Origin: a virus
DNA length: 57,103 nt
Direction: 5' to 3' (one strand)
Virus record (IMG/VR): IMGVR_UViG_3300028666_000023
Coordinates: 1 to 57,103 of that record
Shown here: piece by piece, positions 4,747 to 41,423 of the stretch
Numbering within the stretch: the first letter of the stretch is position 1
Layout of the letters: each line of letters opens with the position of its first letter
Translations under genes and position numbers: made by a program
Notes under the pieces: model-generated
Seen by the model: the letters and a program-made list of their open reading frames with translations, nothing else
Told to the model about the DNA's origin: nothing
Databases searched by the model: none

Positions 4747-4762
4747 ATAAGGATCATGGAGG
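4747..4762 (+). promoter_or_regulatory. ATAAG-type phage promoter candidate
   Basis: ATAAGGATCATGGAGG; the motif recurs at seven transcription-unit starts. Confidence 0.6.
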
Positions 4763-4768
4763 CCCCCC

Positions 4769-5251
4769 ATGAAGCAATGTTCAAAATGCGGCGGACCAGG
4801 GCCGTTCGGAAAACACCACGGCACCAAAGACGGGCTGCAGTACTGGTGCAAGACCTGTCAAAAGATTCTTTCAGCTGCACGCTACAAAGCGAACCCGACC
4901 GAGTATGCCCACAAGCACCAGCAGTACCGAACGACATTTCGGGAACGACACCCAGAACGGCTGCTGTGGACATTTGCGCGTCGCAGAGCGAAGGCGTTGG
5001 CGTACCCGTTCAATATAGAACCCGAGGACATCATCATCCCAGAAACCTGCCCGCTGCTGGGCATCCCTCTCATCAGGAGTAACGGCTACGCGACGGACAA
5101 TACGCCATCTCTGGATCGCAAGAACGCCCAACTTGGGTACATCAAGGGCAACGTCTGGGTCATCTCTTACAGAGCGAACAGGCTGAAGAGCGACGCCACC
5201 CTCGAAGAACTCGAGCTGCTCGTCAGAAATCTGCGGGCCTCCATGGGATAA
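4769..5251 (+). CDS. HNH-type homing endonuclease with N-terminal Zn ribbon
   Basis: CSKC...WCKTC N-terminus; CPLLGIPL...PSLDRKNAQLGYIKGNVWVISYRANRLK beta-beta-alpha-Me signature typical of phage HNH nucleases. Confidence 0.85.
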   Translation: MKQCSKCGGPGPFGKHHGTKDGLQYWCKTCQKILSAARYKANPTEYAHKHQQYRTTFRERHPERLLWTFARRRAKALAYPFNIEPEDIIIPETCPLLGIPLIRSNGYATDNTPSLDRKNAQLGYIKGNVWVISYRANRLKSDATLEELELLVRNLRASMG

Positions 5252-5263
5252 GAACTATGGAGG
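5248..5263 (+). promoter_or_regulatory. ATAAG-type phage promoter candidate
   Basis: ATAAGAACTATGGAGG; its TAA is also the HNH stop codon. Confidence 0.55.
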
Positions 5264-5273
5264 CAACACCACA

Positions 5274-5795
5274 ATGCGCATCAACCTGAAGGCCGCTGTT
5301 CTTCGAAGCGGACTCACACAATACCAAGTCGCACAACAAGTAGAGATGAACGAGTCCCGCTTCAGCCGCATCATGAGCGGGCGCATCTCACCCACAGCGG
5401 AAGAGCGCATCGCCATCGCACGCATCCTGAATGTGCCGCTCGAATTGAGCAGTGCGCTGTGGGACCCGCAGCAGAAAGTTCGGAGCGAACACGCAATGCA
5501 AAACGCGGTCGCAAAGGTAGCAGCACCCAACACCAGCCTCGATCTCGAGTCGCTGAGGAAAGATCACCCACAGGTAGTGGAAGCTATCGAAGGGGTCTTT
5601 GCTCAAGCCGACCTCAAACTGCGCTTTATTCTCCTGAGGCTTGCGTCGGAGCGTCTGGGCAAGGAGGCGCTCACGCAGGAGCTCAAGGCGCTGAACCAAC
5701 GTACTGCCGAAGTACTTCTACTCGATCTGCTCGAGTTGGAGATTCGGCATCGCCGGCACCAAATCGAACAACAGAAACGGGCGGAGGGGGCGTAG
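5274..5795 (+). CDS. XRE-family helix-turn-helix regulator
   Basis: LKAAVLRSGLTQYQVAQQVEMNESRFSRIMSGRISPT is a Cro/CI-type HTH. Confidence 0.8.
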   Translation: MRINLKAAVLRSGLTQYQVAQQVEMNESRFSRIMSGRISPTAEERIAIARILNVPLELSSALWDPQQKVRSEHAMQNAVAKVAAPNTSLDLESLRKDHPQVVEAIEGVFAQADLKLRFILLRLASERLGKEALTQELKALNQRTAEVLLLDLLELEIRHRRHQIEQQKRAEGA

Positions 5796-5815
5796 TTCGC
5801 CCTTTCTTAGCTACT
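5785..5815 (+). terminator. Hairpin plus CTTAGCTACT tail at a convergent junction
   Basis: AGGGGGCG-tagtt-CGCCCTTT, then CTTAGCTACT. The same tail occurs at 17766 and 40252. Confidence 0.55.
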
Positions 5816-7044
5816 CACGCGAGGACGTTGTTGTTGCCCGAGGCGATCTTTCCGACGAAGGGTCCCGTAGTTGTAATCGTTGCCACCGCCGGAACACCAG
5901 CCTGCGGGCTCGCGGAGAACGTGATGGAGCAGGGCGCGCTCACGAGATCGGTGTTCACCGTGTCTCCGATGCGGCCGACGGGAATCTGCCCTTCCTTCAA
6001 CCGGATGACGCTGCCCTTCAGCGCAACGAACTGCCCGCCGTCGATCGTTGCGCCGTTCACCGCCTTCAGCGCGAAGCTGTCCTTCGTCGAGACGGAGATG
6101 GCACCCTGCACGTCGAACGTCAGCGTCTTGTCGAGCTTGAAGTACACGTTGCCCTCGACGCGCAGGAGGGTGTTGCCCGCGCGGTCGAAGACGAAGCGCA
6201 GCACGGAGTTCGAGACGGTGCTCGAGTTGGCTTCTTCCCCGCTCTCGGCGACGAACCCCTTCGGGCTGACGGCGACCTCGTAGATGACAGGGCTGTTCGG
6301 GTCTTGGCCCACGCCAGCAGCGCTCGCGGCTGCGCCACCGTCCGGGTCGCTCATCGGCTGGTAGACCTTGCCCATCGACATGCGGATGTCGGCGTACTGG
6401 TCATCCGCGAAGATGCGCATCGTGTGTTGGTACTGCGTCGGGAACTTCGTGTTCGACGGACCGTCCTGCAGTCCCCACGTGATCGAGCCGCCGGCGTTGT
6501 CGTGCGAGTAGTTCTCGCTGATGTCGCGTATCTGGTTGTTGAGCGGCAGGTAGATGCGCTGCGCGAGCTCGGTGGCGCCAACCTGAAGAACGCCGCCGCG
6601 GTGCAGGATGACGAAGTTGCCGTCGCGCGTGCGCATCCAGATGTCGCCGAGCTTCGCTGTCGGGCGCCCGCCTTGGAACGACGCGTCGGTTGTATTGGGA
6701 GTCGTCGAGCTATGCGACGTGGTCCCTTGAGGCGCGTCGGTGCTCGAATCGTCCACCATCTCGTTGGCCATCACGAAGGCGATGACGAACGGAGGCGAGC
6801 TGTCGGAGGGGATGCAGACGACGGCCTTGCAGCCGATCTCCGGGATGACGTAGATGCCCTCGCCATTCGAGTGGTGCAAGTACGGCGAGCCGACCTGGAT
6901 GTTGAAGTACTTCATCCGGTCGAACTGCGCGGCCACGTCGATCGTCCACTTCACCAGGTTCACGTTCATCACGCGACCCTGCACGATCTTCGCTGCATCG
7001 TGCCCAGCGACACTCGTGAACGACGTTCTGAAGCGGGTGGTCAT
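5815..7044 (-). CDS. Baseplate central spike protein (gpV/gp5-like OB fold, beta-rich shaft, PAAR-like tip motif)
   Basis: N-terminal GRVMNVN...GEGIYVIPEIGCKAVV OB-fold pattern, repeated short beta strands, and C-terminal PVGRIGDTV...GKIASGNNNVLA. Confidence 0.65.
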   Translation of the reverse strand: MTTRFRTSFTSVAGHDAAKIVQGRVMNVNLVKWTIDVAAQFDRMKYFNIQVGSPYLHHSNGEGIYVIPEIGCKAVVCIPSDSSPPFVIAFVMANEMVDDSSTDAPQGTTSHSSTTPNTTDASFQGGRPTAKLGDIWMRTRDGNFVILHRGGVLQVGATELAQRIYLPLNNQIRDISENYSHDNAGGSITWGLQDGPSNTKFPTQYQHTMRIFADDQYADIRMSMGKVYQPMSDPDGGAAASAAGVGQDPNSPVIYEVAVSPKGFVAESGEEANSSTVSNSVLRFVFDRAGNTLLRVEGNVYFKLDKTLTFDVQGAISVSTKDSFALKAVNGATIDGGQFVALKGSVIRLKEGQIPVGRIGDTVNTDLVSAPCSITFSASPQAGVPAVATITTTGPFVGKIASGNNNVLA

Positions 7045-7047
7045 CTC

Positions 7048-10000
7048 TCAATAGTGGTGCGCGGGGACGTTCTTCAAGTATTCGCGCCCGGGCGTGGTGG
7101 AGTCCTTCGACGTCAGGCCGAACTCCGCACCGAAAGCCATGCCGGGAATCGGGTGGGTTCCGTGCAGGTGCGAGACGCCATTCTCCGAAGCAGCTTCGAG
7201 GAGGGTGTCCCGCAGGTGATTGTGCTGCAGCTTCGCCATCCAGTCATCCTGGATTTCGAGCGGCAGGACGCCAACGCCCTTCAGCACCGGCTTGTGGTCG
7301 ATGGGCTTCTGTTTTGCGGCCTTGAGCTCCTCGTTCATCCGGAAGATGACCGACGTCGGGCGGTACTCACCACGAAGCACCGTCGGGTGGTCGCCGGGGT
7401 CGGTGACCTCGCTGAGGTTGCTCATCGCCTTCACCGTGGTCTCGATGATGCGGCGCTTCACGCCCTCGCCCTTGTAGAGGTTCGAGATCTCGTTCGTCAT
7501 CTGGTTCTGGACCTTCTCGATGGAGCCCGTCGCCTTGTACAGGTCGTGGAGGTTCAGGATGGTGCGGTTGGGATCGGAGAGGTGTTGGCCTGCCTGCACG
7601 TGCAGACCGACCTGCGGCGGTTCCCACCGCACGTAGTCGGGCGACAGCCGCGCGCGCGTGAGGTCTTCGTGCAATGGTTGGCCACTCGTGTCCTTGCCGA
7701 CATGATGACGCTCGCCGCCGATGATGATGTCGACGCCGGTCGCCGTCGGTTCGATCTTCTCGATCTTGCCGCTCTTCATCGCGAGCGATGCCGCATTCGG
7801 CACCTTCTCCGGCAGGGTGTAGAGCTGCTGCAGACGGTTGAAGGAGCTGAGGAGCTTCGAGCCACCGAGCTCCTGCACGCCGCCGGTGTGGAAGCTCTTG
7901 AGCGTGAGCTGCATCGCGCGCTCGCCGATGGTCTGCGCGGACTGCAGTCCGATGTTCGTGCCGAGGGGGAAGTGCTGTCCGGTGGCGCCGAGACCCATGC
8001 ACTTCTGGCAGAGGCCCTTCTCCTCTTCGCACTTGAGTGGGCTGCGGACGACGACTTGCGTCTCCTTCGCCGCGCGCATCTTCCCGATGATGTCGGGGGT
8101 GAGCATCGTGTCCTTCGGGATGTGCATCTTCCCGTGGGTGAAGTCCTGCTGCATGTAGCGGCCGATGAGGTCGGGCTCGTCGATGCCGAGAGAGACGCCC
8201 TTGGTCGTCCCGCAGTCGTGGGAGTTCACGAGCATGTGCATCATGCTCGCGACCATCTGCTTCGAGAGGTAGCCCGGGTCGCGGACCTCCTGCACCTTCA
8301 TGACGGAGCCGCGCCGGGCGCCGTGCATCTGCGTCCAGTAGCCGCCGATGTCGAGGCCTTCGGCGTAGCTCTTCGTGACGGGCGTGGGGATGGTGCGATC
8401 GGCGGAGTCCTTGAGCAACATCGGCGCGAGCACCATCTGCTTGTACTGATCCCAGCCCGGCTTCACCTGCGCCTTGAGCATCGTGAAGAGGTTGCTCGCT
8501 TTGTCCTCGGCATCGAGCTTGTCGGCCTCGGACATGTGCAGCTTCTTCATCTCCTCTGAGGCCTTCGTGTAGAGGTCGATGGCCTGGCGATCTTGCTCGC
8601 TGCGGGGGAGCTTGGTGTTCTCGTAGAGCTTCTTCACCTGCGGCTCGTACTTCCCGAGAACGGCGTCGCGGACATGCTTGTCCGGAGTGAAGTCGTCGAG
8701 CGCCAACGTGTGCGTGCCGACGGGGATGAAGACCTGCTTCGAGAGGTCGTGCGTCGCGACGGGCGTCTGATCGAGCTTGCGGAAGGAGAGCGCGTGGCCC
8801 GCTGAGGTGGGACGGGGCAGCGCGACGGCGCCGAACGCGGTTCCGTTGCCAAGGTCCTTCAGTCGGTTGACCGCCGCGCCGAAGTCTGGCGAGTGGTCCT
8901 TGGCGATCGTCGTGAGCATCTCATCGAGTCCGCCACGATTGAGGCGGTAGTCCAAGTTCTCGAGGACGTGCTTCTGCATCGGCTGCGGGACTGCGCTCGC
9001 GATGAGGACGCGGCCCGGCGTCGTCTTCGCAGAGCCGAGACGCACGATGTCGTGCATCTTCACGTCGCCCTTCTTCATCGCGTCGATGACTTCACCGGGG
9101 TGGAAGAACTTCTTCCCCGAGTCCTTGCCCACGCGCGAGAGCTTGTAGAGACCGAGCGCGCTCTCGAGCGTCGGCTGGTACATCACCTTGCCCGTCGCCT
9201 CGCTGAAGAGGTTGTTCGACGGATACATCTTCTTTGCCTCGTCGATCGCCTCGCGCGTGATGGGCACGTAGATACTCATCGTGTCGCCGTCGAAGTCGGC
9301 GTTGTAGCCGGACGTGACGAGCGGGTGGATCTGCACCGCGTTGCCGACGACGGGTCGTGCCTTGAAGGCCTGCACCGAGTACTTGTGCAGCGCGGGGTCG
9401 CGCTTCATGAGCACGGGGCGCTCGGCCATCACACGCTCGAGGGCCTTCCACACGACGGGCGGCTTCTTCTCGAGCAGCGGGCCGTACTCGCCAAAGCCCG
9501 GCGTCTTGATCGCGCCCATCTGCTTCAGCTCGTGGACGACGAACGGTCGGAACAAGTCGAGCGCAGCGTTGCGAGGGATGCCAACCTCGTCGAGACCGAG
9601 CGCGGGTTCGGGCACGATCGTCGAGCGCATCGTGAGGTCTTGCCGGCGCTCCACCATCACGTTCTGGAAGAAGCCGTCCTTGGGCTTGCCGCCGGAGATC
9701 TGGTGGAGGATGCCCTTGTGCTTCACGTCGTCGTACGGGAAGCCGACGCCCATCAAGCGCCGCACGCCGTCATAGTAGTCCCGGCGGAGGTCCGACTTGC
9801 CGGCGTCGGTGAGGTTCTTCTTGAGGATCGGGTCCTTCAGCTTGTCGTTGATCTTGGCGAAGTCGGAGTACAGCTGGTTCAGGTCCGCGAACTTCAGCGA
9901 GCCGTCGGGCAACGTCGACACGGGGCGCATCACCGGTGGGATGACCGGCAGGTTGTGGAGGACGTAGGCCTGCGAGGGTTCGTAGTCGAGGTCCTTCAGC

Positions 10001-13000
10001 GCGCGTAGGTACTTCACCTTCTTCAGCGCGCGATCGAGACCCTGGTGTTGGCCCTTGCCGACCTTCATCGTCTTGAGAGCCTCCTCCGCCTTGGGGAGCT
10101 CCTTCTTGACGTTGATTCGCTTGAGCAGCTGGTCGATCGCTTCACCGCCCGTGACTCCTGCCGTCACGTCAGTGAGGTGGCCGTTCGCCGTGACGCCGCG
10201 GTTGCCGTGGATGACGTCGAAGTACTCCGTCTCGTTGAGACCGGTGAGCACCTGGATCGGCTTCTCGAAGATCGGGTTCGGCAGCGGCTCGGAGAGCGCG
10301 ATGCGCGTCCAGTTCCTGCCGCCATGACCGCCCGTGAGATGCTCATCGAAGAGACCGCCGCCGATGGGCATGGGGTCGCCGTTGCGATCGAGCTTCGAAT
10401 GGAGGATGCCGGCCGGGTTCGGCAACACGTTCTTCGCAAGCTGCTTCACCTGCGTGTCGGTGAACGGCGTGAGCACGAAGTCGTGCCCGCGCTTCTGAAG
10501 ATTCACGCCCGCGCCCCTGAGCAGCTGCGTGAACTTCTCGAAGACGAACGTCGGCTTCGGCGTCGGGTACTGGCGGTTCGTTTGGATCTGCGCCCAGATC
10601 TCTTTGTGGTCGCTCGGCCACGCCTTCGCCGGGTTCGTCTGCTTGTCCGGGCCCTGCGACTTGTACGACTGCATCTCGCGGATGTTCGCCTTGGCGCCGT
10701 GCGCGAGAAGAGCGTAGAGGCCGAGCGTGCCCATCGACTGGCCGCCTTGGCCGCCGCCGGACGTCGGCTGCAGGTTGCGGTCGTAGCCCTCTTGCGGGCC
10801 CGACGGCAAGCTCATGCCCGAGCGCACGGAGAGCTTCTTCTCCACCTGGTGCTCGAGCTTCAAGATGTGCTGGTAGCCGACGAGTGCCTTGCCGAGCGGC
10901 TGCTTCGTGACCGGGTCGTGGAGCTCCTCGGTGTCCGAGATGCCGTGGTCCTTGAGGTCCTTCTTCACCTGCGCGAGGTAGTCGACGTTCGGCTCGAAGT
11001 TCTTGACGATGTACGGCTTGCCCGTCTTCTTCGCGATCTTCGCGGCCGCGGTCTCGAGCACCTGCCCAACGTTCATGCGCCCCGGCACGCCGGACGGATT
11101 CAGCGCCACCTCGATGTGATTCCCATCGGATGTGTGCGGCATCTCCGCGTCGGGGAGGATGCGCGAGACGATGCCCTTGTTGCCGTAGCGGCCGGTGAGC
11201 TTGTCGCCGACCTGCATCGGTTCGACGGTGCGCACGTGCACCTGGATGCCGCCCTTCGAGCGGTGCACACCGACGACCTCGCCGTCGAACTCGCTGTCCC
11301 AGCGGAGGCTCTTGTCGGTGTGCGCGCCCGACATGCTCTTCCGAATCGCGGAGAGGCCTTGCTTGTCCTTGAGCTCGAACGGCTTCATGGCCGCGACGAT
11401 GACTTCTCCGGGGTGCACGGTCTGGCCGACGCGGATCACTCCATGGTCATCGAGCTTGCCCGCCTGGTCTTTGTTCAGCGCGCTCGGGTGCTGCTGCTGA
11501 AACTTCTTCTTGTTGAGCACGATGGACTCGTCGAGGGGCATCGACGGTTTGTTCATGTGCACGCTCGAGAGCTTGTCGGCGGCGGTCTCGCTGATGACGA
11601 CGCCGTCCTCGAAGTTGAGGCCCTTGAACGGGATGAAGGCGACGCGGAGATTCGTTCCGAGCGCGAGCGTGCCGTTCTTCGAGAAGTTCGTGTCAGCGAC
11701 GGTCTGCCCCTTCTTCACCGACTGCCCGACGGTCACGAGCGGCGTCGAGTGGTAGACGCCCTTCGCATCGTTGAGCGGGTAGTTGTTGTAGATCTGCACC
11801 TCGTGCGACTTGCCGTCGGGCGCGCGCACCACGATCGCATCGTTGCTGACGGCAGTGACCGTCCCTGCGACGGGCGCCTGATGCGACGCCTGCGCGCCCA
11901 TCAGCTTCTCGAACGTCTCGGCGCCGGGCGTCTCGACGCCGGTGCTGACCTGCACGAGCGGATTCTCGCGCTTCGCGAGGGAGATGGCCTGCTCGATCTG
12001 CCGCCCTGCCATAGAGGCGCGGCCGCCGCTCACGTTCCCGAGGAACGGAACGAGGTTCGACGTCATGTTGAAGAGCTGGCTCGGGTGGCGGAGCACGTAG
12101 TCCGCATCGGCGAACTTGCCGTGGCGGATCTCGTTGTCCTCCGTGCTCATCTTCACTTCGGCATCGACCGGCTTGGGAACGCCGCCCTCCCAGCGCACCT
12201 GGTCGGGAAGAACAACCTTCGAGGTCATGAAGGTGCCGGGACCAACGAACTCCGTATGGTGGGAGCGGAGGTTGTAGAGGGGGATCTTCGCTTCCTTGCC
12301 AACCTTCTTCACACCGATGGGCAGGCGGAGAGACACGCCGGTCTTCTCACCCTCAGGGGTGTGGATGGGGTCGAGGAAGCCGAGGTGGCTGGGGTTTACG
12401 AACTTGGCCTCGTTCGTAACCTGGCGATCGCTGCGAACGCCGCCCGGGCCCATGATGGTCGTCTGCATCGCCGAGCTCACCATCTCGACGGGGTTCGTCT
12501 GCGAGGGAGCGAGGGCCGCGGCGTTGTCGTGGAATGTGCTCTTGATGGGCCCGTTGAACATGTCGAAGCGCACGATGTCGCGGATGCGCGACTTCGAATC
12601 GACCTGCCGGGAGATCTTGGCGCGGATGTCCTTGCGCGCGCGGTTCAGCTTGTCGAGCGCGAAGTCACCCGTCGCGCGCAGGTCCTTGAAGACGAGGTTG
12701 TCGCGATCGTCCTCGGGATGACCACCCTGCACCTTCAAGATCTTCTGGGTCGCGAGCGTGAGCGCGTCGCCGTTGACGTGGTCGTGTGGGCGGCCGAGCG
12801 TGATCGCCGTCGCCTCCGGCCGCATCTTCGACTCCTGCATCGTCGTGTAGAAATGCTCGGCGGCTTGGTCCTTGGACGCGGGCGCGTTGTCGGTGGTCGT
12901 GCGGTAGAAGCGATCGAGCGCGCTGTTCACGTCCTTCGCGTTCTTGTTCGCGTCGAAGATCTGTGCCCCCCACGCGGCCTTCAGCGTGTCATCGCTGACG

Positions 13001-13536
13001 CCGAGCGTCTGCAGGAGCGGGTAGATCGGCGGCTTGGCCTTGTTGTACTCGAGGCGGAAGACCTTCGACGCGGGATCGAACGTGACGTGGAAGGCGCGCT
13101 TGCCCGTCACGTTGAAGTACGTCTCGAGCCCGCCGCTCGCGGAGCGACGTGTGTACGCGCCAGGCTTCAGCTGCCACTGACTCGCGACCTGGTACTCCTT
13201 CGAGCCGTCGCGTCCCGCCACGATGTAGCTGTGGCGTGAGGTCGTCTTCGGAATCTCCGCGATGCGAAGGCGCTGATGGTCGAGCGTCTTGCCTGACTCG
13301 TTGTCGAGGAGCGTGAGGTTGGCGTAGACGGGGACTGCCCACGATTCGCCCTCGACCTTCGCCTTGTGCTGGGCGCGCAGGTCGTCGGGGTGGAGATCGT
13401 CGACCGTCTCGAGACCATCGAGCCGGAGCGTTTGGGCGCGCCCCTTGAACTCCTTGTTGGGGAAGTAGCCTTCAATGCCTTCGAGAACGCGGCTTTGAAG
13501 GTGGTCGAACGCCTCTTGGGGGTTGAGAAAGGACAA
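7048..13536 (-). CDS. rpoBC: Single-chain DNA-directed RNA polymerase, fused beta + beta-prime
   Basis: Beta motifs: GPGG, PIHTPEG, NFEDG, GDKLTGRYGNKG, NPSGVPGRMNVGQ, GGQSMG. Beta-prime motifs: LPVIPPVMRP, RDPALH, catalytic YNADFDGDTM, bridge helix HGARRG...PGYL, Zn site RSPLKC...CQKC, trigger loop AQTIGERAMQLTLKSFHTGG. TTG start. Confidence 0.97.
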   Translation of the reverse strand: MSFLNPQEAFDHLQSRVLEGIEGYFPNKEFKGRAQTLRLDGLETVDDLHPDDLRAQHKAKVEGESWAVPVYANLTLLDNESGKTLDHQRLRIAEIPKTTSRHSYIVAGRDGSKEYQVASQWQLKPGAYTRRSASGGLETYFNVTGKRAFHVTFDPASKVFRLEYNKAKPPIYPLLQTLGVSDDTLKAAWGAQIFDANKNAKDVNSALDRFYRTTTDNAPASKDQAAEHFYTTMQESKMRPEATAITLGRPHDHVNGDALTLATQKILKVQGGHPEDDRDNLVFKDLRATGDFALDKLNRARKDIRAKISRQVDSKSRIRDIVRFDMFNGPIKSTFHDNAAALAPSQTNPVEMVSSAMQTTIMGPGGVRSDRQVTNEAKFVNPSHLGFLDPIHTPEGEKTGVSLRLPIGVKKVGKEAKIPLYNLRSHHTEFVGPGTFMTSKVVLPDQVRWEGGVPKPVDAEVKMSTEDNEIRHGKFADADYVLRHPSQLFNMTSNLVPFLGNVSGGRASMAGRQIEQAISLAKRENPLVQVSTGVETPGAETFEKLMGAQASHQAPVAGTVTAVSNDAIVVRAPDGKSHEVQIYNNYPLNDAKGVYHSTPLVTVGQSVKKGQTVADTNFSKNGTLALGTNLRVAFIPFKGLNFEDGVVISETAADKLSSVHMNKPSMPLDESIVLNKKKFQQQHPSALNKDQAGKLDDHGVIRVGQTVHPGEVIVAAMKPFELKDKQGLSAIRKSMSGAHTDKSLRWDSEFDGEVVGVHRSKGGIQVHVRTVEPMQVGDKLTGRYGNKGIVSRILPDAEMPHTSDGNHIEVALNPSGVPGRMNVGQVLETAAAKIAKKTGKPYIVKNFEPNVDYLAQVKKDLKDHGISDTEELHDPVTKQPLGKALVGYQHILKLEHQVEKKLSVRSGMSLPSGPQEGYDRNLQPTSGGGQGGQSMGTLGLYALLAHGAKANIREMQSYKSQGPDKQTNPAKAWPSDHKEIWAQIQTNRQYPTPKPTFVFEKFTQLLRGAGVNLQKRGHDFVLTPFTDTQVKQLAKNVLPNPAGILHSKLDRNGDPMPIGGGLFDEHLTGGHGGRNWTRIALSEPLPNPIFEKPIQVLTGLNETEYFDVIHGNRGVTANGHLTDVTAGVTGGEAIDQLLKRINVKKELPKAEEALKTMKVGKGQHQGLDRALKKVKYLRALKDLDYEPSQAYVLHNLPVIPPVMRPVSTLPDGSLKFADLNQLYSDFAKINDKLKDPILKKNLTDAGKSDLRRDYYDGVRRLMGVGFPYDDVKHKGILHQISGGKPKDGFFQNVMVERRQDLTMRSTIVPEPALGLDEVGIPRNAALDLFRPFVVHELKQMGAIKTPGFGEYGPLLEKKPPVVWKALERVMAERPVLMKRDPALHKYSVQAFKARPVVGNAVQIHPLVTSGYNADFDGDTMSIYVPITREAIDEAKKMYPSNNLFSEATGKVMYQPTLESALGLYKLSRVGKDSGKKFFHPGEVIDAMKKGDVKMHDIVRLGSAKTTPGRVLIASAVPQPMQKHVLENLDYRLNRGGLDEMLTTIAKDHSPDFGAAVNRLKDLGNGTAFGAVALPRPTSAGHALSFRKLDQTPVATHDLSKQVFIPVGTHTLALDDFTPDKHVRDAVLGKYEPQVKKLYENTKLPRSEQDRQAIDLYTKASEEMKKLHMSEADKLDAEDKASNLFTMLKAQVKPGWDQYKQMVLAPMLLKDSADRTIPTPVTKSYAEGLDIGGYWTQMHGARRGSVMKVQEVRDPGYLSKQMVASMMHMLVNSHDCGTTKGVSLGIDEPDLIGRYMQQDFTHGKMHIPKDTMLTPDIIGKMRAAKETQVVVRSPLKCEEEKGLCQKCMGLGATGQHFPLGTNIGLQSAQTIGERAMQLTLKSFHTGGVQELGGSKLLSSFNRLQQLYTLPEKVPNAASLAMKSGKIEKIEPTATGVDIIIGGERHHVGKDTSGQPLHEDLTRARLSPDYVRWEPPQVGLHVQAGQHLSDPNRTILNLHDLYKATGSIEKVQNQMTNEISNLYKGEGVKRRIIETTVKAMSNLSEVTDPGDHPTVLRGEYRPTSVIFRMNEELKAAKQKPIDHKPVLKGVGVLPLEIQDDWMAKLQHNHLRDTLLEAASENGVSHLHGTHPIPGMAFGAEFGLTSKDSTTPGREYLKNVPAHHY

Positions 13537-13601
13537 GGCTCACCCGACGCTCAGCGTACTCCACGCCCCGATGGCGCAGCAAGTCAGAACGAGCCGCAGG
13601 A

Positions 13602-13617
13602 ATAAGAAGTGTGGAGG
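13602..13617 (+). promoter_or_regulatory. ATAAG-type phage promoter candidate
   Basis: ATAAGAAGTGTGGAGG in the divergent gap upstream of the RNAP gene. Confidence 0.6.
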
Positions 13618-13643
13618 ACCTAAGCGACCTCTGAGGAGGAACG

Positions 13644-13799
13644 ATGGGACCCGATAATCGAAAGAACACCGGCGCCGAGTTCGAGAAGAAGATCGACAGC
13701 TTGTTTTTTGGGGAAGACGGCGCGGGAAAAGAACCAGCAGATGACGACTACATCGAGTTCATGGAAGTCGAAGCAGAAGAAAACAACAACGAGGAATAG
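13644..13799 (+). CDS. Small acidic hypothetical protein (51 aa)
   Basis: Hand translation MGPDNRKNTGAEFEKKIDSLFFGEDG...EVEAEENNNEE; GAGGAGG RBS. Confidence 0.6.
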   Translation: MGPDNRKNTGAEFEKKIDSLFFGEDGAGKEPADDDYIEFMEVEAEENNNEE

Positions 13800-13814
13800 A
13801 ACTCGTTCCACGCA

Positions 13815-13830
13815 ATAAGAAGAATGGAGG
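13815..13830 (+). promoter_or_regulatory. ATAAG-type phage promoter candidate
   Basis: ATAAGAAGAATGGAGG. Confidence 0.6.
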
Positions 13831-13835
13831 AGACG

Positions 13836-13943
13836 ATGATGACGTTCTGGCTGTTCTTCTTGGCGGGCGTGTTCAACGGGATGTTGATCTGGATCCGAGA
13901 GCGATTGAAGGAGGAGGCCTATGCTTTTGAACCCGTACCGTGA
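13836..13943 (+). CDS. Small single-TM membrane protein (35 aa)
   Basis: MMTFWLFFLAGVFNGMLIWIRERLKEEAYAFEPVP; GGAGG RBS. Confidence 0.5.
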   Translation: MMTFWLFFLAGVFNGMLIWIRERLKEEAYAFEPVP

Positions 13944-14508
13944 CCGCCCGACGGTCATCCCGGGAACGCGCCTCCTCGAATCTACGTTTGGAGTAATCGG
14001 CGGTCGAGTCGCCGACCCACACAACCCGATGCGCGTCTGGGAGGTCCACGGAGTGTTCGCTCCGCTTCCCGGGCGCGCCATCGGTGGTGTGCGCATCAAA
14101 CTCGTAGACCAAAAAGAGTTCGTGACGTTCTGCAACCAGCGCGACTTCGAAGTCTTGCTGGGCATGGGAGCTCCGGGCCAGTACTGCCCGTGGCTCGAGG
14201 GAAGATACGTCGGCTGGGACGATCCCACTTGGTGCGGCTTCTGCTGCGACGAGGAAGATCTCCGAGACGACCTCTTCGAACGCGAGATGCTCTTGCGCGC
14301 ATACATGCCGCCGCCGGGCGTCTTGATTCCTGGCTACGACATCGAGCGCAAGGTGCACATCGACAAGAACCGAGACGTCGCAGACCTCTTCGTTCTTCTC
14401 GCCGACATGGACCAAGAAACCGGCATGTGCCCAGACACGCGCTTCGAAACGGTCGAGCGCCGTTGGATGCGTGCAGAAAGGGCGCCCGTACGATGGGAGA
14501 AGAGCTAA
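13921..14508 (+). CDS. Hypothetical protein
   Basis: 195-aa ORF with GGAGGAGG RBS. Confidence 0.75.
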   Translation: MLLNPYRDRPTVIPGTRLLESTFGVIGGRVADPHNPMRVWEVHGVFAPLPGRAIGGVRIKLVDQKEFVTFCNQRDFEVLLGMGAPGQYCPWLEGRYVGWDDPTWCGFCCDEEDLRDDLFEREMLLRAYMPPPGVLIPGYDIERKVHIDKNRDVADLFVLLADMDQETGMCPDTRFETVERRWMRAERAPVRWEKS

Positions 14509-15116
14509 GAAGCGTCCCCTTCGATTGGGACAACGATCACGAAGAGGCGCCGGGAAGTTCCGGCGTCATCTGCGCGCAGTGCGAAGACTCGATCGAAATG
14601 ACCGAGGAGTGTTTCCTCATCCAGGTCGTGCAGCCGCAGAAGATCGGCGGTCAACTGTTCTTCTACCCTGTGAAGGACGAGTTCAGCATGGAGGGGGACT
14701 TCCTCTTCGAGCCGTACCACTTCTGTTTCTCGTGCTGGGAAGATCTGCTCGAAGATCTCCAGAAGGAGATGCGCGACGTTCCCCCCGTAGAGGACGCACT
14801 CTCCATTCTCGAATGCTCGTGCTGCGGAAGCGGCGTTCGGGAGTGGGAGTACTGCGCGACGTATTCACTCGGCGAGTTCCGACGCTCGAGTCGAGCGCCC
14901 GCGCCTGAGTGTTCCTACGGGCCCGTCTTCCAGCAAGACAGTGGGCCCGAAGTGCTCTGCACGTATTGTGCAGCGCTCCTCAATGAAGTCGCCATCACGA
15001 TGTGGGAAGACTTTTCTCACGAAGGCGAGTGCATCGATTGCATCCAGCTGCGATGTTGGCGCTACGGCGACGTGTGCGTGTGTTCGTGTCACGAAGAAGG
15101 AGAGAGCGATGAGTGA
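14493..15116 (+). CDS. Cys-rich, acidic putative Zn-binding protein
   Basis: C-terminal part of ORF 14190..15116 from MGEELRS; CAQC, CFSC, CSCC, CTYC, CIDC, CVCSCH. Confidence 0.75.
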   Translation: MGEELRSVPFDWDNDHEEAPGSSGVICAQCEDSIEMTEECFLIQVVQPQKIGGQLFFYPVKDEFSMEGDFLFEPYHFCFSCWEDLLEDLQKEMRDVPPVEDALSILECSCCGSGVREWEYCATYSLGEFRRSSRAPAPECSYGPVFQQDSGPEVLCTYCAALLNEVAITMWEDFSHEGECIDCIQLRCWRYGDVCVCSCHEEGESDE

Positions 15117-16374
15117 GAAATTGGAAGGAATCATGTCGGTCGCGATGCTCACCCCCATGGGAGATCCGAACGACAACGACTGCAGGTGGGGCGCCCCGAT
15201 TCTTCTCGAGGGCCCTCCCGGCATCGGCAAGAGCGGCATGATCGGCCAGGCCGCGCGCTCTGTCGACCTCCCGCTCCGGACTGTGTACCTCGGGCAGCGG
15301 CAACCTGAGGACCTCTCCGGTGCACCGATGCCCGACGGCAAAGGCGGCGTGAACATCGAGTGCATCCTGCCCGCCGTCCGCGAGCTCACCGCTCTCGGCA
15401 AGGGACTTCTCCTTCTCGACGAGCTCTCCTGCGCGCGCCCCGCAACACAAGGCGCTGGGCTCAGCACCGTGCAGGAGCGTGCCGTCGGCGACACGATGCT
15501 TCCGGGCAGGGTCCGCGTCTTCGCAGCGGCGAACCCTCCGGAGCAGAGCGCGGGCGGTTGGAAGCTCGCGCCTCCTATGGAGAACCGCCTCGTACACTTC
15601 AAGGTCGAGGCGCCGACGCCGGAAGAGTGGGGCGCGTACATGCTCCGCGGCCGCACCATCCAGGTGAAGAACCTCACGCTCGGCGAGGCACGCGTTGCCG
15701 AGAAGTGGGCCGAGTCGTGGGCGTACATCGTCGGCCTCACGACGACGTTCATCGCGCGCTTCAAACCGGAGGACCAGCCGGACATCAAGGACTCGTCTGG
15801 CAAGTCGCTTCGCGACACGCGCAGCGCGCTCATGCGCTTCCCGACATCGAACGATCGCAATCGCGAACACGCGTGGGCATCGCCCCGCTCATGGGAGATG
15901 GCGATGCGTTGTGCGGCGACGTGTTGGACGCTGTCTGACTCGAACGTCAGCTTCAAGATCTTGGCTGCCGACTTCGTCAAAGCGTGCGTCGGTGGTGCGC
16001 TCGCGACGGCATGGGCGGAGTGGATCGCGAAGGCGGATCTTCCCGACCCCGCACACATGCTCCACAACGGCTGGAAGCCGAACAAGTCCCGCCTCGACAT
16101 CGTCCACGCCGCTCTCGCGGCGGCGACGGCGTACGCTCTCGCGCTCCACGACAAGGACGAGCGCCGCAAGCACGTCATCCTCGCGTACAAGCTCCTCAAC
16201 CAGGCCGACAAAGAAGGCCTCGCTGACATGACGCTCGCGCCGGCGAAGGCGCTCATGGAGGCGGGCTACCGCGCGTCGACTGCTGGCACCGATAAGGAGC
16301 TCGCAGAAGCAGCGATGCCCCTCACCAAGAAGTTCGGAACCACTGGCATGGCGGCGTTCGCGCCGAAGAACTGA
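15109..16374 (+). CDS. MoxR-like AAA+ ATPase
   Basis: Walker A GPPGIGKS, Walker B LLLLDE, sensor AANPP, arginine finger ENRL; start MSEKLEG with AAGGAG RBS. Confidence 0.9.
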   Translation: MSEKLEGIMSVAMLTPMGDPNDNDCRWGAPILLEGPPGIGKSGMIGQAARSVDLPLRTVYLGQRQPEDLSGAPMPDGKGGVNIECILPAVRELTALGKGLLLLDELSCARPATQGAGLSTVQERAVGDTMLPGRVRVFAAANPPEQSAGGWKLAPPMENRLVHFKVEAPTPEEWGAYMLRGRTIQVKNLTLGEARVAEKWAESWAYIVGLTTTFIARFKPEDQPDIKDSSGKSLRDTRSALMRFPTSNDRNREHAWASPRSWEMAMRCAATCWTLSDSNVSFKILAADFVKACVGGALATAWAEWIAKADLPDPAHMLHNGWKPNKSRLDIVHAALAAATAYALALHDKDERRKHVILAYKLLNQADKEGLADMTLAPAKALMEAGYRASTAGTDKELAEAAMPLTKKFGTTGMAAFAPKN

Positions 16375-17738
16375 TGGTACAAGCCAATCACGAAGACAAG
16401 ATGGGGATGGCGAGGCTCTACACCACCTCGAAGGCCCCGTACTCCTCGACCATCGTCCATGGGTTCATCTACGTGGCGATGCCGGGAATCGGAACGATGC
16501 TCTGCACTGATGGGATGGTCCTCGGTTACGACCCCTCGTGGGCAGAGACGGCGAGCGTTGAGGAGCTCGGGGCCGACCTTTACCATGAGGTGAACCACTT
16601 CATGCGACGTCACTTCTGGCGTCGGCATGTCGCGCGTCCTGACCTCTTCAACAGAGCGGGAGATCTTGCGATCAACCCCGACCTGCGGAACGCGGGCTGG
16701 AAGCTGTCCACGGACCCGAAGATGGGAGCGATCTTCCCGAAGGATTACGGCTTCCCCGAAGGCCTCACCACCGAGGAGTACTACGACCTGCTGTTGAAAC
16801 AAGAACAACAGCAACAGCAGGAGAAGAAGGGTGGCGGTGGCGCAGGTGCTGGAAGTGCAGAAGCCGAAGGCGGCGCCGGTCCTCCGAAGGCGGGCGTCTG
16901 CTCCGGCAAGTGCGGTTCCATCGCCGGCGGCGAACGTCTCGAATGGGAGAACAAGCTCGCCACACAGACGGACGTGGCACCGCGAACAGATCTCGAGGTC
17001 CGTGCGATCGAGATGCGCGCCACACAAGAACTGCGGAACTGGCAGGAGAAACAAGCAAAGGCAGCTGGGCGCGGAAATGTGCCCAGCTACCTCAGCGAGT
17101 TCTTGAAGGCGCTCGAGGAAGATCCCGTCGTCTCCTGGCAGGACGAGCTCGCAACCATCACATACGACTGCGTCGGCATGATGCAGTCGGGCGGTGATGA
17201 CTACTCCCTTCGCCGACCGTCGAAGCGGTCCCACGCGCGCGGGTTCCCGCGTCCGGGACTCGTCGAGTACAAGCCGGAGATCGCCATCACGCTCGACACG
17301 TCGGGCTCGATGGGACTCGAGCAGCTCAAGGCCGTCGTGCGCGAGGTCGTGGGAATCATGGATGCCCTCAGCATCGATGAGATCTGGTGGTGTGAAGCCG
17401 ACGCGGGCGTTGCGCAGGACTGGCAACGCGTCCATCTCGACTTCTTCCACGAGCTCGCCATCCACGGTCGTGGTGGGACGGACTTCCGCCCCGCCATCCG
17501 TACGGCACTCGAGCTCTACCCCCGACCCGACCTCCTCTTCTACGGGACGGACGGCGATGGCACCGCGCCGGCGGCGCCGCCCGAAGGCATGGAGGTCATC
17601 TGGCTTGTTGTCCCCGGTCACTGGAATCGCGCGCCCGCTCCATGGGGCCGCACGATCTTCGCGACGGACGACAAGCGCCAGAAGCGTCGCTTCGAAGAAC
17701 AACACGCGGGTTCTTCTTGGGGCGACGAGGACGAGTAA
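16374..17738 (+). CDS. DUF2201-like HExxH metallopeptidase + VWA domain protein
   Basis: HEVNH, DLAIN, EEYY, MIDAS DTSGS, GRGGTDF, TDG; coupled to the AAA gene. Confidence 0.9.
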   Translation: MVQANHEDKMGMARLYTTSKAPYSSTIVHGFIYVAMPGIGTMLCTDGMVLGYDPSWAETASVEELGADLYHEVNHFMRRHFWRRHVARPDLFNRAGDLAINPDLRNAGWKLSTDPKMGAIFPKDYGFPEGLTTEEYYDLLLKQEQQQQQEKKGGGGAGAGSAEAEGGAGPPKAGVCSGKCGSIAGGERLEWENKLATQTDVAPRTDLEVRAIEMRATQELRNWQEKQAKAAGRGNVPSYLSEFLKALEEDPVVSWQDELATITYDCVGMMQSGGDDYSLRRPSKRSHARGFPRPGLVEYKPEIAITLDTSGSMGLEQLKAVVREVVGIMDALSIDEIWWCEADAGVAQDWQRVHLDFFHELAIHGRGGTDFRPAIRTALELYPRPDLLFYGTDGDGTAPAAPPEGMEVIWLVVPGHWNRAPAPWGRTIFATDDKRQKRRFEEQHAGSSWGDEDE

Positions 17739-17745
17739 TCGTCCG

Positions 17746-17774
17746 GAGAAGGCCCGCGCCTTCTCTTAGCTACT
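17746..17774 (+). terminator. Hairpin plus TTAGCTACT tail at a convergent junction
   Basis: Perfect 8-bp stem GAGAAGGC-ccgc-GCCTTCTC, then TTAGCTACT. Confidence 0.6.
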
Positions 17775-18517: not shown

Positions 18518-18526
18518 CGGTTCCTC

Positions 18527-22417: not shown

Positions 22418-22424
22418 GTGCCCC

Positions 22425-23900: not shown

Positions 23901-23907
23901 GAGGCTC

Positions 23908-23913
23908 ATCCTA
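23908..23913 (-). promoter_or_regulatory. -10-like box TAGGAT 7 nt before ATG
   Basis: Lies in the divergent gap at the head of the portal operon. Confidence 0.4.
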
Positions 23914-23963
23914 CACGCTGGAACGTCGAATTGGTACTGGCGATTCGGAAGGAGAAACAAGGA

Positions 23964-23978
23964 ATAAGGACTGCGAGG
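23964..23978 (+). promoter_or_regulatory. ATAAG-type phage promoter candidate
   Basis: ATAAGGACTGCGAGG at the head of the plus-strand DNA metabolism operon. Confidence 0.6.
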
Positions 23979-24007
23979 CAGTACTGCTTCCAGCAAGGAG
24001 TCACAAC

Positions 24008-28950: not shown

Positions 28951-28976
28951 ACCCCAAAGACCAACAACTCGTTGGC

Positions 28977-28994
28977 ATAAGGGCGTGCGGGAGG
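28977..28994 (+). promoter_or_regulatory. ATAAG-type phage promoter candidate
   Basis: ATAAGGGCGTGCGGGAGG upstream of dnaB; spacer is 1 nt longer than in the other copies. Confidence 0.5.
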
Positions 28995-31473: not shown

Positions 31474-31477
31474 AAAC

Positions 31478-32758: not shown

Positions 32759-32764
32759 CGACGG

Positions 32765-32802
32765 AGCGGGGGCGCGCCACGCGCGCTCCCGCTTTCTCTT
32801 AG
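32765..32802 (+). terminator. Hairpin plus TTCTCTTAG tail before polA
   Basis: 12-bp stem AGCGGGGGCGCG/CGCGCTCCCGCT; the tail overlaps the polA RBS. Confidence 0.5.
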
Positions 32803-32812
32803 GAGCGAAAAC

Positions 32813-38516: not shown

Positions 38517-38962
38517 TCCGCATCGAGCTGCCCTGGCTGCCGCCATCCTCCAACCACGCGTACATGAACGTGCGCGGGGGAGGCGGACGGACGCTCACCG
38601 AGGCGGGCAGGGAATTCAAGAAGAGGACGACGGTACACATCCAACAGAAGTACCCGACGGCCATGCGCCTGTTCGTCAAGAACAAGCCCTACATGATCGT
38701 CTTCCGCTTCTACTTCGAAGAGGTGGAGAACAAGTCGTTCGGCCAAGGAAAGGCCGAAAACCGGTATAAGACGTTCGATGGCGGAAACAGAACGAAGCTG
38801 TTGGAAGACGCTCTGAAGGACGCTGGAGGCATCGACGACTCCCAGACGATGATCTCCATCTGGCAAAAAGAACAAGGCACCCCCGAGCGCACCATCATCT
38901 GGGCCTGGTCGCTCGAGGACGAGAAGCCTCTCCCCTATGAACTTCTACGAAGCCTTCAGTAA
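38513..38962 (+). CDS. rusA: RusA-family Holliday junction resolvase
   Basis: LPPSSNHAY...DGGNRTKLLEDAL...IDDSQ. Confidence 0.85.
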   Translation: MIRIELPWLPPSSNHAYMNVRGGGGRTLTEAGREFKKRTTVHIQQKYPTAMRLFVKNKPYMIVFRFYFEEVENKSFGQGKAENRYKTFDGGNRTKLLEDALKDAGGIDDSQTMISIWQKEQGTPERTIIWAWSLEDEKPLPYELLRSLQ

Positions 38963-39287: not shown

Positions 39288-39296
39288 GAGAATCTC

Positions 39297-40028
39297 ATGG
39301 CTGCTAACCAACCCGCCCTCGAAATCCCCACGGCTCCCCGCGACATCGAAGGGCTCAAGGCTATCGCCCCGTTTCAACTGCGACTACTCGCGACCAAGCT
39401 CGGCGCGTTCGCGACTCCGGAGAAGCAGCAGGCGTGGCATCAGCTCGGGAACAAGGAGGCGCAGGCCGACTACGTCCTGAAGCTCCTCAAGGACCACGAT
39501 GCGGCGAACGGAGCGAACGGCGTCGGCACCAACGGCGCGGCTCACATGCCGCAGCTCGCAGCTCCGTCCGCCGTACCGGCCGTCAACCCGGTTGCTACCG
39601 CGCTCGCAACGGCGGCCGCTGCACCGGACAAGAAGGCCGCTCCGAAACGCACTCCCGTCGCTCCGGGCGCGCAAGCCATGGCGTCACCAGGCCCGGCAAC
39701 CGGTCCGAGCATCGACCTCGGAGCCGCCGTGCTGGAGAAGCTCGAGGAGCTCGCGAAGGCGATCGCGGCGAACACTGCTGCCATCCACGGTCTCGCGCAG
39801 CACGTGGGCGCGCGCGACCAGAAGACGAGCGAGGCGTTCGCAGCGATCGCGTCTGAACAGGCGAAGCAGACCGCCCTGTCGACGTGGACGCTCACCACCC
39901 TCCTCACGATGGGCGAAGGGCAGCTCGGCGCGACGCCGCTCGACCTCCTTCGCTCGGCCGTCTCCGACGCCAGCATCCTCGAGAGCCTCGTCGCTCAGGT
40001 GCAGCAGGAGCTCGGCGGGGGAAAATAG
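39297..40028 (+). CDS. Hypothetical Ala-rich protein ending at a slippery site
   Basis: 243 aa; AGGAG RBS; ends GGG GGA AAA TAG. Confidence 0.8.
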   Translation: MAANQPALEIPTAPRDIEGLKAIAPFQLRLLATKLGAFATPEKQQAWHQLGNKEAQADYVLKLLKDHDAANGANGVGTNGAAHMPQLAAPSAVPAVNPVATALATAAAAPDKKAAPKRTPVAPGAQAMASPGPATGPSIDLGAAVLEKLEELAKAIAANTAAIHGLAQHVGARDQKTSEAFAAIASEQAKQTALSTWTLTTLLTMGEGQLGATPLDLLRSAVSDASILESLVAQVQQELGGGK

Positions 40029-40231
40029 AGACCTCCGTCCCCGACCCGCCATGGCCAGGGTGCGTGTGGCCGGCGCAGGACACGGAGAAGATCGAGCTCA
40101 CCGAGAGCCAACTCGACAACATGGCGGACTTCGCCGTGCTCGAGTTGGCCGCTCGGGTGGGCCTCTTGGTCGAGGACGAGAAGGGATTCCCGAATCTGAT
40201 TCGGGCACGCATGAAGAGGGCGCTGCGTTGA
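40019..40231 (+). other. Probable -1 programmed frameshift site and C-terminal extension
   Basis: Heptamer G GGA AAA at 40019-40025; the -1 frame is open to 40231 with coding-like codons. Confidence 0.6.
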
Positions 40232-40286
40232 GCGGCGCCTTTCTTTTTTCTAGTAGCTAAGAAAAGGGACTACGGCGTCCCTTCTC
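40217..40286. terminator. Back-to-back terminators at a convergent junction
   Basis: Plus strand: AGGGCGCTGC/GCGGCGCCTT then TCTTTTTTCTAG. Minus strand: GAGAAGGGAC/GTCCCTTTTC then TTAGCTACT. Confidence 0.65.
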
Positions 40287-40515
40287 CCACGCGCTTCTCG
40301 GCAGCGCGCACCTTGTCGAAGAGCTCCTTGAGTTTGTCGGTGAACTCGGAGCGGCGCTCCATGGGCAGAAGACTGACGGCAGTCTCGAGAGTGCCGAAGC
40401 ACTCGCGGATGCCCTCGAGGTAAGCGCGATCGCGTTCCAGCGCTGCGCTCTTCGAGTGAACCCCCGACACTTCTTGCTCGGGGAACTTGCTCGCCGACTG
40501 CCCACGGTTCTTCAT
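40270..40515 (-). CDS. Hypothetical protein (81 aa)
   Basis: MKNRGQSASKF...; GGAGG RBS; ATGA overlap with the thyX stop. Confidence 0.65.
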   Translation of the reverse strand: MKNRGQSASKFPEQEVSGVHSKSAALERDRAYLEGIRECFGTLETAVSLLPMERRSEFTDKLKELFDKVRAAEKRVGEGTP

Positions 40516-41411
40516 GTGCCTGCTGCCTCCTTCATCCACGGTTGCGGAAAGAGATTCGGAGCGAAGTCCATCGCGACCTTCGCCCACGTGCGTGCAAGAC
40601 GCTGGATCTCGAGGTCGGCAGATCCATCCGCGCGCTCGCGCACGAACTTGGCGATCGCCATAGGATTCGTCGACCAGATGAAGCTCGTCTCCGCCTGATG
40701 CGGTAGGAAGCTCGAGGCCGCCTCGTAGATGCGCTTCTTCTCGATGCCCGTCGGCTCGCGGCCGTTGTGCACCTTGTAGTTCTCGACCTCGCTCGCGATT
40801 GCCTCGCGGTACGCCCCATAGGCCAGCTCCATCGACGTCTTGAACTGGTGGCGCATGTACTCTGCGTTGGGCGTGTCGGTGAGCTGGTACCGCGGCGGTT
40901 CGATGAAGAAGCCGTAGTGGTGCGTGAAGCGCGTCGACTCCTGCGAGGGGCTGCCCTCCTCGTCGCGGTCGGCGCCCACGTAGTTCCGAATGAGCTCGTG
41001 GCTCACGCGGCGCGAGACGCCGGCGATGAAGAAGCTCATCTTCGCATGGTACAGGATGCTCGCATGCGGAACCGCGCCGGCCTGCGTGTTCTTGATGTAC
41101 TCGCTGTTGGTCTTCTTCCCCGCCTTGAGGCCGAAGCTGTCGTAGCACTTGCGGCCCGCGAGCTCGACGAGGAGCTCGTTGTCTGTGAGAGCACGCGCTT
41201 GAAGGACCCGCGAGTCGTTGTCGTTCAACGTCGGCTCGGTGAGGTCGTGCGGAAAGAGCGACTGCCAGTTGTCCGCGTTTTCGGGGAGGCACTCGGGTCG
41301 GTGAGAGCCGACCCACTCCATCATGGCTTCGATGCCGATGGGCAGAAGCTTCATCGTTGCGATCGGAACCACCGTAGGCGGACCCGTGAGAATGGTGACT
41401 TGTTTTGCCAT
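40512..41411 (-). CDS. thyX: Flavin-dependent thymidylate synthase (ThyX-like, non-canonical motif)
   Basis: ELAGRKCY.S, HASILYH...F.I.GVSR..SHELIR, SQESTR, EAASSFLP, ADLEI. Confidence 0.8.
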   Translation of the reverse strand: MAKQVTILTGPPTVVPIATMKLLPIGIEAMMEWVGSHRPECLPENADNWQSLFPHDLTEPTLNDNDSRVLQARALTDNELLVELAGRKCYDSFGLKAGKKTNSEYIKNTQAGAVPHASILYHAKMSFFIAGVSRRVSHELIRNYVGADRDEEGSPSQESTRFTHHYGFFIEPPRYQLTDTPNAEYMRHQFKTSMELAYGAYREAIASEVENYKVHNGREPTGIEKKRIYEAASSFLPHQAETSFIWSTNPMAIAKFVRERADGSADLEIQRLARTWAKVAMDFAPNLFPQPWMKEAAGT

Positions 41412-41423
41412 CGCAGCCCTTAT
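41409..41423 (-). promoter_or_regulatory. ATAAG-type phage promoter candidate (near-leaderless)
   Basis: Minus strand reads ATAAGGGCTGCGATG, ending at the thyX start codon. Confidence 0.55.

Follow-up and report, generated by a model that had tools for sequence, protein, structure and literature searches.

A short sequence word built around ATAAG, found at the heads of replication and other non-structural genes in the IMG/VR virus record IMGVR_UViG_3300028666_000023, is very probably a promoter of the two-box sigma type. The window is the stretch of 57,103 nucleotides analyzed here, the first 57 kb of a 193,844-bp phage contig (63% GC; hereafter G000). Counts refer to the whole contig unless stated otherwise. 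The full word reads GCAA-N16-GG(R)ATAAG-N5-Y-G. We name its positions from a +1 at the G after the pyrimidine, which puts ATAAG at -11 to -7, GG at -14/-13, and GCAA at -34 to -31; sites with this word are called class A, and host sigma70-type -10 boxes of the form TANNNT are called class B. If the word is a promoter, it is in turn highly likely to be read by a sigma factor that the phage encodes. We consider it likely, on the whole, that this sigma works with a fused beta-beta' RNA polymerase (RNAP) of the phage and that the two are packaged and act early. The related genomes G001, G002, and G003 were compared; pooled three-genome counts combine G000, G001, and G002.

A total of 43 copies of ATAAG were found in G000, 11 of them in the window, and 29 were followed by N5-Y-G (7.9 expected). 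The longer form GG-N-ATAAG-N5-YG occurred 24 times, compared with a mean of 1.4 in 100 codon-preserving/intergenic shuffles (maximum, 5 coding and 3 intergenic), and GGAATAAG was the top over-represented 8-mer of the minus strand (12 versus 0.3). An earlier sequence-only reading of the window had proposed the word as a promoter for the phage RNAP and called for a comparison with a codon-preserving background; run genome-wide, that comparison bore out the enrichment, and all seven sites listed there were correct in coordinates and letters. Its RRNNR spacer between ATAAG and the pyrimidine was over-fitted, matching 6 of 6 sites in the window and only 13 of 29 genome-wide. Most ATAAG-N5-YG sites (23 of 29) lay outside called genes in a genome 90% covered by genes, and GG stood at -14/-13 in 24 of these 29 versus 5 of the 14 other ATAAG copies. 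G occupied -7 in every site; a relaxed scan returned no variant with T at -7 and supporting context, and the T at -12 and T at -7 of housekeeping sigma70 promoters (TANNNT) are not combined at the ATAAG sites. A generic sigma70 scan of 4500-24400 gave 1 site (2.1 expected). GGAG followed ATAAG at a distance of exactly 6 nt in 20 of the 43 copies (0.28 expected) and at gaps of 2 to 5 nt in 0 of 43. Overlap with a Shine-Dalgarno sequence, also proposed earlier, is frequent in G000 but forms no part of the word, since GA or GT follows the G at many relatives' sites. The start is probably at the G after the pyrimidine, as had been supposed; the conserved Y-G(R) there is suggestive. Depletion of ATAAG within genes (6 versus 55 expected) was discarded as evidence because other TAA-containing words were equally depleted, and a 5' hairpin after the predicted +1, seen at 1 of 24 sites in G000 versus 6 of 22 in Vibrio phage D69 (z < -2), was not used as evidence.

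The sites follow gene function. In the window, the plus strand carries replication genes (helicases, primase, PolA, RecA, RusA, and UDG), and the minus strand carries the portal, tail genes, and the fused RNAP. Class A sites head replication units, thyX, and small-gene units at 70-134 kb (minus) and 147-151 kb (plus). On the minus strand, no consensus sites were found in 1-41422, 41424-70306, or 134268-193844, the arcs of the portal, RNAP, capsid, terminase, and tail genes, in agreement with the earlier claim that sites head non-virion units and none precede structural blocks. A class A site lay upstream within the block for 14 of 17 non-particle genes and was absent for 14 of 16 particle-class genes; distances to upstream sites are approximate, since the custom gene caller overlooked some genes.

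What had been described as a short single-element promoter has a second box. Of the 63 pooled GG+YG sites, 23 had GCAA at a distance of exactly 19 nt ahead of ATAAG, and no other of the 8960 word/position combinations tested scored as high. With sites picked by the downstream part alone, G(C/T)AA was present 18 to 20 nt before ATAAG at 10 of 29 YG sites versus 0 of 14 other ATAAG copies in G000, with corresponding counts of 9/26 versus 0/40 in G001 and 15/42 versus 2/59 in G002. Two boxes (-35 and -10) at a constrained spacing, here with a peak at 19 nt, are the arrangement of the sigma70 family. The ATAAG word has the A at -11 of sigma70 promoters, with G replacing T at -7 (for the roles of A-11 and T-7, see PMC7598289). 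Sites without GCAA would act through the GG as extended -10 promoters, a class described in PMC4598750.

The candidate reader lies outside the window. A 274-amino-acid (aa) sigma70-family protein is encoded at 131330-132154 on the minus strand, identified by a PHROG sigma match (4.8e-6), Sigma70_r3, and PDB sigma matches. Its product has sigma2, sigma3, and sigma4 domains; regions 2.3-3 align with SigA, FliA, and WhiG, and the relation to FliA is distant (E = 0.008-0.3). The predicted model is all-helical (pLDDT 88.9) with a C-terminal helix-turn-helix (HTH), and all 50 Foldseek matches listed were sigma-factor or initiation-complex entries. Among 54 homologs, PF04545 was found on 2. T97 does not vary in their alignment, and K105 and R108 hardly do. 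These residues fall at what we take to be sigma70 T429, Q437, and T440 (E. coli numbering, with their roles likewise assumed), as would fit an A-11 pocket that has been retained, with basic residues toward the GG. The sigma4 HTH and the -35 box diverge together between the G000 clade and the phages Arash and D69. Six-frame searches of G000-G003 found no second sigma. The gene lies in the tail operon, as does its Arash ortholog (Gp10). Its N-terminal word, NP-L/F-x-x-H/Y-L/M-xx-K-x-A, occurs in G000 and G001 only in the sigma and in a head-cluster protein at 190224-190736 (loci L004:18239-19063 and L007:18745-19257, respectively), and the K-x-A(S) part occurs in many other particle-strand proteins; a head-targeting or cleavage signal is possible.

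The fused beta-beta' RNAP (2162 aa; 7048-13536, minus strand) has the catalytic NADFDGD motif and is the ortholog of Arash Gp206+Gp216, with 32% identity. Segments corresponding to the beta flap and beta' clamp helices can be aligned, with changed residues; the functional reading of these surfaces is our assumption. The beta' zinc-binding segment is missing from the RNAP consensus. Among scored candidates, 1391 relatives had E <= 1e-50. One of them, P0133 (WP_394831783), is annotated in the 13.6-Mb chromosome of the myxobacterium Pendulispora rubella and matches at 61% over residues 600-1400. This match is a hint of the host group, not proof, and some members of the lineage may be temperate in myxobacteria. 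With a sigma70-family gene in the genome and a GCAA box at a fixed distance, the likely reader is the sigma-RNAP holoenzyme; the link to the phage transcription system drawn in the sequence-only reading stands, whereas the fused RNAP as sole reader does not.

The word recurs where this sigma family does. Scanning viral contigs with a single sequence gave no sigma relatives, and a profile search based on the alignment returned 16 contigs, the 16th being G001. Over the other 15, which include the near-duplicates G006 and G007 as well as G008, a near-duplicate of G001, the strict pattern gave 145 matches versus 11 for the reversed pattern counted in the same contigs as a control, and 12 of the 15 were clearly above this control. 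The RNAP was found in 12 of the 15 and in all eight near-complete ones (8/8). In Salmonella phage Arash (OQ632216), which has orthologous RNAP, sigma, portal, capsid, and terminase genes and the same ATAAG word on the non-structural strand, 34 sites were found versus 3 in the control; 31 lay on the strand opposite the RNAP and sigma genes, and GGTATAAG was the top 8-mer (30 versus 2.1). Gp10 matched the sigma profile at 4.6e-40. Arash differs in having its RNAP in two genes and a second sigma, Gp196, with no counterpart in G000. In D69 the strict GG pattern gave 5 matches versus 5, but de novo 8-mer counting returned the word as GTTATAAG, with 22 G[GT]TATAAG-N5-YR sites, 21 of them on the strand opposite the RNAP and sigma genes. 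A 204-kb contig, G022:C1 (L076), had 31 sites, 28 of them on the strand opposite RNAP and sigma, compared with 256 versus 373 control matches for the whole G022 bin. This contig of a Bacteroidales bin is itself a phage of the lineage, with an RNAP at 36% and two sigma-like genes. Phages with an RNAP and without this sigma family gave background counts (Carin-5, 4 versus 2; GN1, 4 versus 2; RHph_TM30, 7 versus 6); their RNAPs are more distant than those of the lineage. Carin-5 carries an annotated sigma of its own, and its background count therefore indicates that an RNAP plus any sigma is insufficient for the word. By these counts, the word tracks the sigma family rather than the host (Salmonella, Vibrio, or a high-GC bacterium). 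A separate Arash word, ATATATAA, was rejected as a late promoter, being part of five dispersed repeats (L034-L038; 26687, 66434, 100190, 138537, and 173311). These are AT-rich, about 70 bp long, and origin-like, and each contains ATATATAA twice.

Particle genes and the RNAP gene are preceded by class B TANNNT boxes, commonly placed 6 to 7 nt from the start codon and commonly preceded by TG-N. Boxes at that distance were found for 6 genes in G000 (0.7 expected), 6 in G001 (0.7), and 7 in G002 (2.2), and this class looks like the housekeeping extended -10 box. Four class A sites (4747, 13602, 23964, and 147450) stand back-to-back with the class B box of a divergently oriented gene. A TANNNT lay on the opposite strand no more than 70 nt away at 7 of 24 sites in G000 (7% expected), 5 of 14 in G001 (13%), and 11 of 25 in G002 (29%, a weak excess). 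Mutual occlusion of such paired promoters is speculation.

Taken together, the preferred explanation is that the word acts as a sigma-type promoter with a -35 box, an extended -10 box with G at -7, and a start at G, and that its reader would be the 131330-132154 sigma bound to the fused RNAP rather than to the host core. By analogy with the Arash orthologs, sigma and RNAP would be made late, packed in the head, and first used in the next host. The packaged holoenzyme would then fire the ATAAG promoters first, and the host housekeeping holoenzyme the TANNNT promoters later; Thermus phage P23-45 runs such a program with other enzymes (PMC10770324). Phage sigmas that work with the host core, such as T4 gp55 and SPO1 gp28, offer a different model, in which the phage sigma reads the promoter with host core and the fused RNAP has another role or other promoters. 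Redirection of this kind is common (PMC7824862, PMC7598289), and both the recognizable sigma2-3-4 protein and the lack of an alpha subunit C-terminal domain (alpha-CTD) in the genome would suit it. We nevertheless consider it improbable: in near-complete genomes the sigma family never occurs without the RNAP, one family spans such different hosts, the RNAP retains its flap and clamp-helix segments, and both RNAP and sigma are in Arash particles. The spectra reported there are 3516 for beta, the top protein, 1210 for beta', and 467 for Gp10, and the available text on particles does not name Gp196 (PMC10585845). A similarly small chance attaches to the same holoenzyme acting in the middle of infection, after host RNAP has made RNAP and sigma from TANNNT promoters, with packaging incidental. 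The conserved host-type TACGCT box at the RNAP gene, the class A site upstream of the sigma gene in G000, and the RNAP relative in the P. rubella chromosome, where a prophage must start without injected enzyme, all point that way; the strand and promoter class that RNAP and sigma genes share with capsid, portal, and tail genes, the rank of beta as the most abundant Arash particle protein (PMC10585845), and the N-terminal word common to sigma and the head-cluster protein point to the packaged scheme.

Two further explanations seem very unlikely. In one, the promoter is just ATAAG, a single element recognized by the fused RNAP, and the late TANNNT class is left to the sigma; the early motifs of phiKZ/AR9 virion RNAPs are indeed single elements of about 10 nt at -10 (PMC7598289), and two thirds of the G000 sites lack GYAA. 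The fixed 19-nt GCAA spacing has sigma4/sigma2 geometry, however, the sigma packaged by Arash is the ortholog (PMC10585845), the TANNNT class resembles ordinary housekeeping boxes, and the sigma4 HTH changes along with the -35 box. The other, equally improbable, invokes a host alternative sigma (sigma-28/FliA-like) or a signal in translation or processing that goes with the Shine-Dalgarno sequence. Sigma-28 promoters (TAAAGTTT-n11-GCCGATAA) likewise have 19 nt from TAAA to ATAA (PMC2859248), and the GGAG at 6 nt past ATAAG fits a translational role; TAAA and GCCG are both absent, many relatives' sites have no Shine-Dalgarno sequence after them, a box 30 nt upstream is unexpected for an mRNA signal, and the word is shared by phages whose hosts are unrelated and is missing from the remainder of bin G022.

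Several observations weigh against the packaged phage holoenzyme as reader. Support for the promoter itself is sequence pattern throughout. The -35 box is missing at 19 of the 29 G000 sites, mostly in the units of small genes on the minus strand, and it is less strict in Arash and D69, where CAA 18 to 21 nt upstream is enriched (9/30 and 8/22). No alpha-CTD was found in G000, and an exact class A site is lacking upstream of GroES, dNMP kinase, and dCMP deaminase. Contigs G009, G019, and G020 were no higher than the control with the strict pattern; G009 and G020 have a few two-box sites in which GAG or GAT precedes ATAAG, and one of these, too, diverges from the RNAP gene. In G000, a class A site (134267) is present 2.1 kb ahead of the sigma gene, which a scheme of purely late synthesis would not require; in G001, a TANNNT head takes its place. 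A prophage relative would have to begin with the host enzyme. Metabolic enzymes are among the 116 proteins listed in the Arash proteome, and carry-over is considered possible in that study (PMC10585845). In the more distant phage YerA41, sigma is late-expressed and particle-associated and the RNAP subunits are listed as early (PMC7354516), which fits the packaged-early scheme only in part.

N4 and the crAss phage phi14:2 use a packaged phage RNAP for the first genes and host RNAP for late ones. The same is described for P23-45 (PMC10770324). The RNAPs of all three are highly divergent or single-subunit, without a sigma70-family partner. The virion RNAPs of phiKZ/AR9 resemble the system proposed here in a motif near -10 that stands in front of operons presumed to be early and is attributed to a multisubunit RNAP carried in the particle; those are five-chain enzymes with no recognizable sigma and single AT-rich elements of about 10 nt (PMC7598289), whereas G000 has a one-chain bacterial-type RNAP, a sigma70-family gene, and two boxes. 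The mReC phages are also tailed phages with recognizable beta and beta' (PMC7481178), but where they have the capsid family PF07068, the G000 capsid had no Pfam match at E <= 1 and belongs to PHROG 2522 (major head protein). Promoters read by sigma-28 (FliA; group 3 as defined in PMC4598750) are alike in having two boxes, 19 nt from AA to ATAA, and a composite -10 with an extended G-rich part, and FliA has a similar sigma2-sigma3-sigma4 size; the reader proposed here is phage-encoded and distant from FliA. The ATAA core and 19-nt geometry are shared. In place of TAAA at -35, the sites have GCAA or GTAA (also YCAA), with CTAA once in G001 and no TAAA peak; in place of the GCCG extended -10, they have GG(R) at -14 to -12 and an invariant G at -7. 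The word would thus work like a group 3 sigma promoter but, with these two defining boxes failing, it is not a sigma-28 promoter. The available text of the Arash paper (PMC10585845) makes no mention of promoters, that of the mReC paper (PMC7481178) mentions neither sigma nor promoter, and no prior description of this promoter was found in the open-licence literature.

Within the window, the class A site at 4725-4758 (plus; GCAA at 4725-4728, N18, ATAAG at 4747-4751, GG at -14/-13, predicted +1 G at 4758) heads an endonuclease gene (4769-5251). Its GCAA abuts a class B box, TAGGCT (4719-4724, minus), 6 nt before the ATG of the leaderless gene 2493-4712. The site at 5226-5259 (plus; GAAA-N18-ATAAG at 5248, predicted +1 at 5259) heads an HTH repressor-like gene (5274-5795). 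At 13579-13613 (plus; GCAA-N19-ATAAG at 13602, predicted +1 at 13613), the site is divergent from the RNAP gene, with counterparts in the same place in L009, L010, L013, and G020; TACGCT (13553-13558, minus), before the RNAP gene, lies 20 bp from its -35 box and is also present in G001 and G003. A weaker site follows at 13812-13826 (plus; ATAAG at 13815, N5-TG), with GC for GG and without a GYAA box. The site at 23961-23975 (plus; GGA-ATAAG at 23964, N5-CG) has no -35 box and heads a helicase/UDG unit, with orthologs in G001 (97648) and G002 (72152); back-to-back with it, TAGGAT (23908-23913, minus) lies 7 nt before the ATG of gene 22425-23900, the head of the portal block. The DnaB-primase-PolA-RecA unit is headed by 28954-28989 (plus; CCAA-N19-ATAAG at 28977), with +1 one base later or at C and orthologs in G001 (102503) and G002 (67102). 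On the minus strand, the thyX site (41412-41446; GTAA at 41446-41443, N19, ATAAG at 41423) has its predicted +1 G at 41412, immediately preceding the ATG of thyX; the GTAA overlaps the stop codon of the upstream gene, and orthologous sites lie in G001 (119170) and G002 (46126). If +1 is 41412, the thyX leader is 1 nt (G then ATG, 41411-41412) without a Shine-Dalgarno sequence. Among copies previously set aside as gene-internal, one given near 4588 is present, at 4587, and the one at 38766 fits the full word (38743-38777, plus; CCAA-N19-ATAAG, GG, CG inside the RusA gene). It is kept in G001 and G002, but it is also codon-constrained, which leaves it an ambiguous, possible internal class A site.

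Elsewhere in G000, a one-mismatch site at 167122 (minus; L006:14859), TCAA-N20-ATACG-N5-TG, heads the dCMP deaminase/dNMP kinase block, which it may serve; it is back-to-back with a TACAAT box and orthologous to an exact G002 site (125129). Promoters are often closely preceded by a hairpin with a T-tract that ends in TAG(C) (6 of 24 G000 sites; 94815, 102573, 109678, and 64438-64574). The pattern is also present in Arash and D69, with a strand bias of 15:0 for TTTT(N0-2)TAGC in Arash, and is possibly a terminator of the lineage. A single tRNA-Phe(GAA) gene lies at L001:17953-18028 on the minus strand (about 74.2 kb in G000). The octamer GCGATCGC, which we take to resemble HIP1, has 52 copies in G000 (13.4 expected), 0 to 1 in G001-G004, and 10 in G005; its abundance may reflect a host methylation system. 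Seventeen source runs were found for the contig among the runs listed, all of them DNA runs from rhizosphere metagenomes.

To our knowledge, known phages either pair a sigma of their own with the host polymerase or encode a divergent polymerase that has no classical sigma. The lineage described here seems to combine a classical sigma, a bacterial-type polymerase, and a promoter specific to the two. The word predicts exact start sites in a cultured phage, Arash, and may give a way into how a sigma2 domain accepts G at -7. It may also serve as a marker of early versus late genes in a large uncharacterized lineage and as a candidate orthogonal expression system. It is conceivable, though we hold it doubtful, that this widespread lineage of ~180- to 200-kb phages injects a complete, alpha-less sigma70 holoenzyme of bacterial type with a private promoter code (A-11, G-7, and GCAA at -35) fixed across Salmonella, Vibrio, and myxobacteria, the injected enzyme occluding back-to-back late promoters. 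If true, this would be an orthogonal two- or three-protein transcription system of the sigma type.

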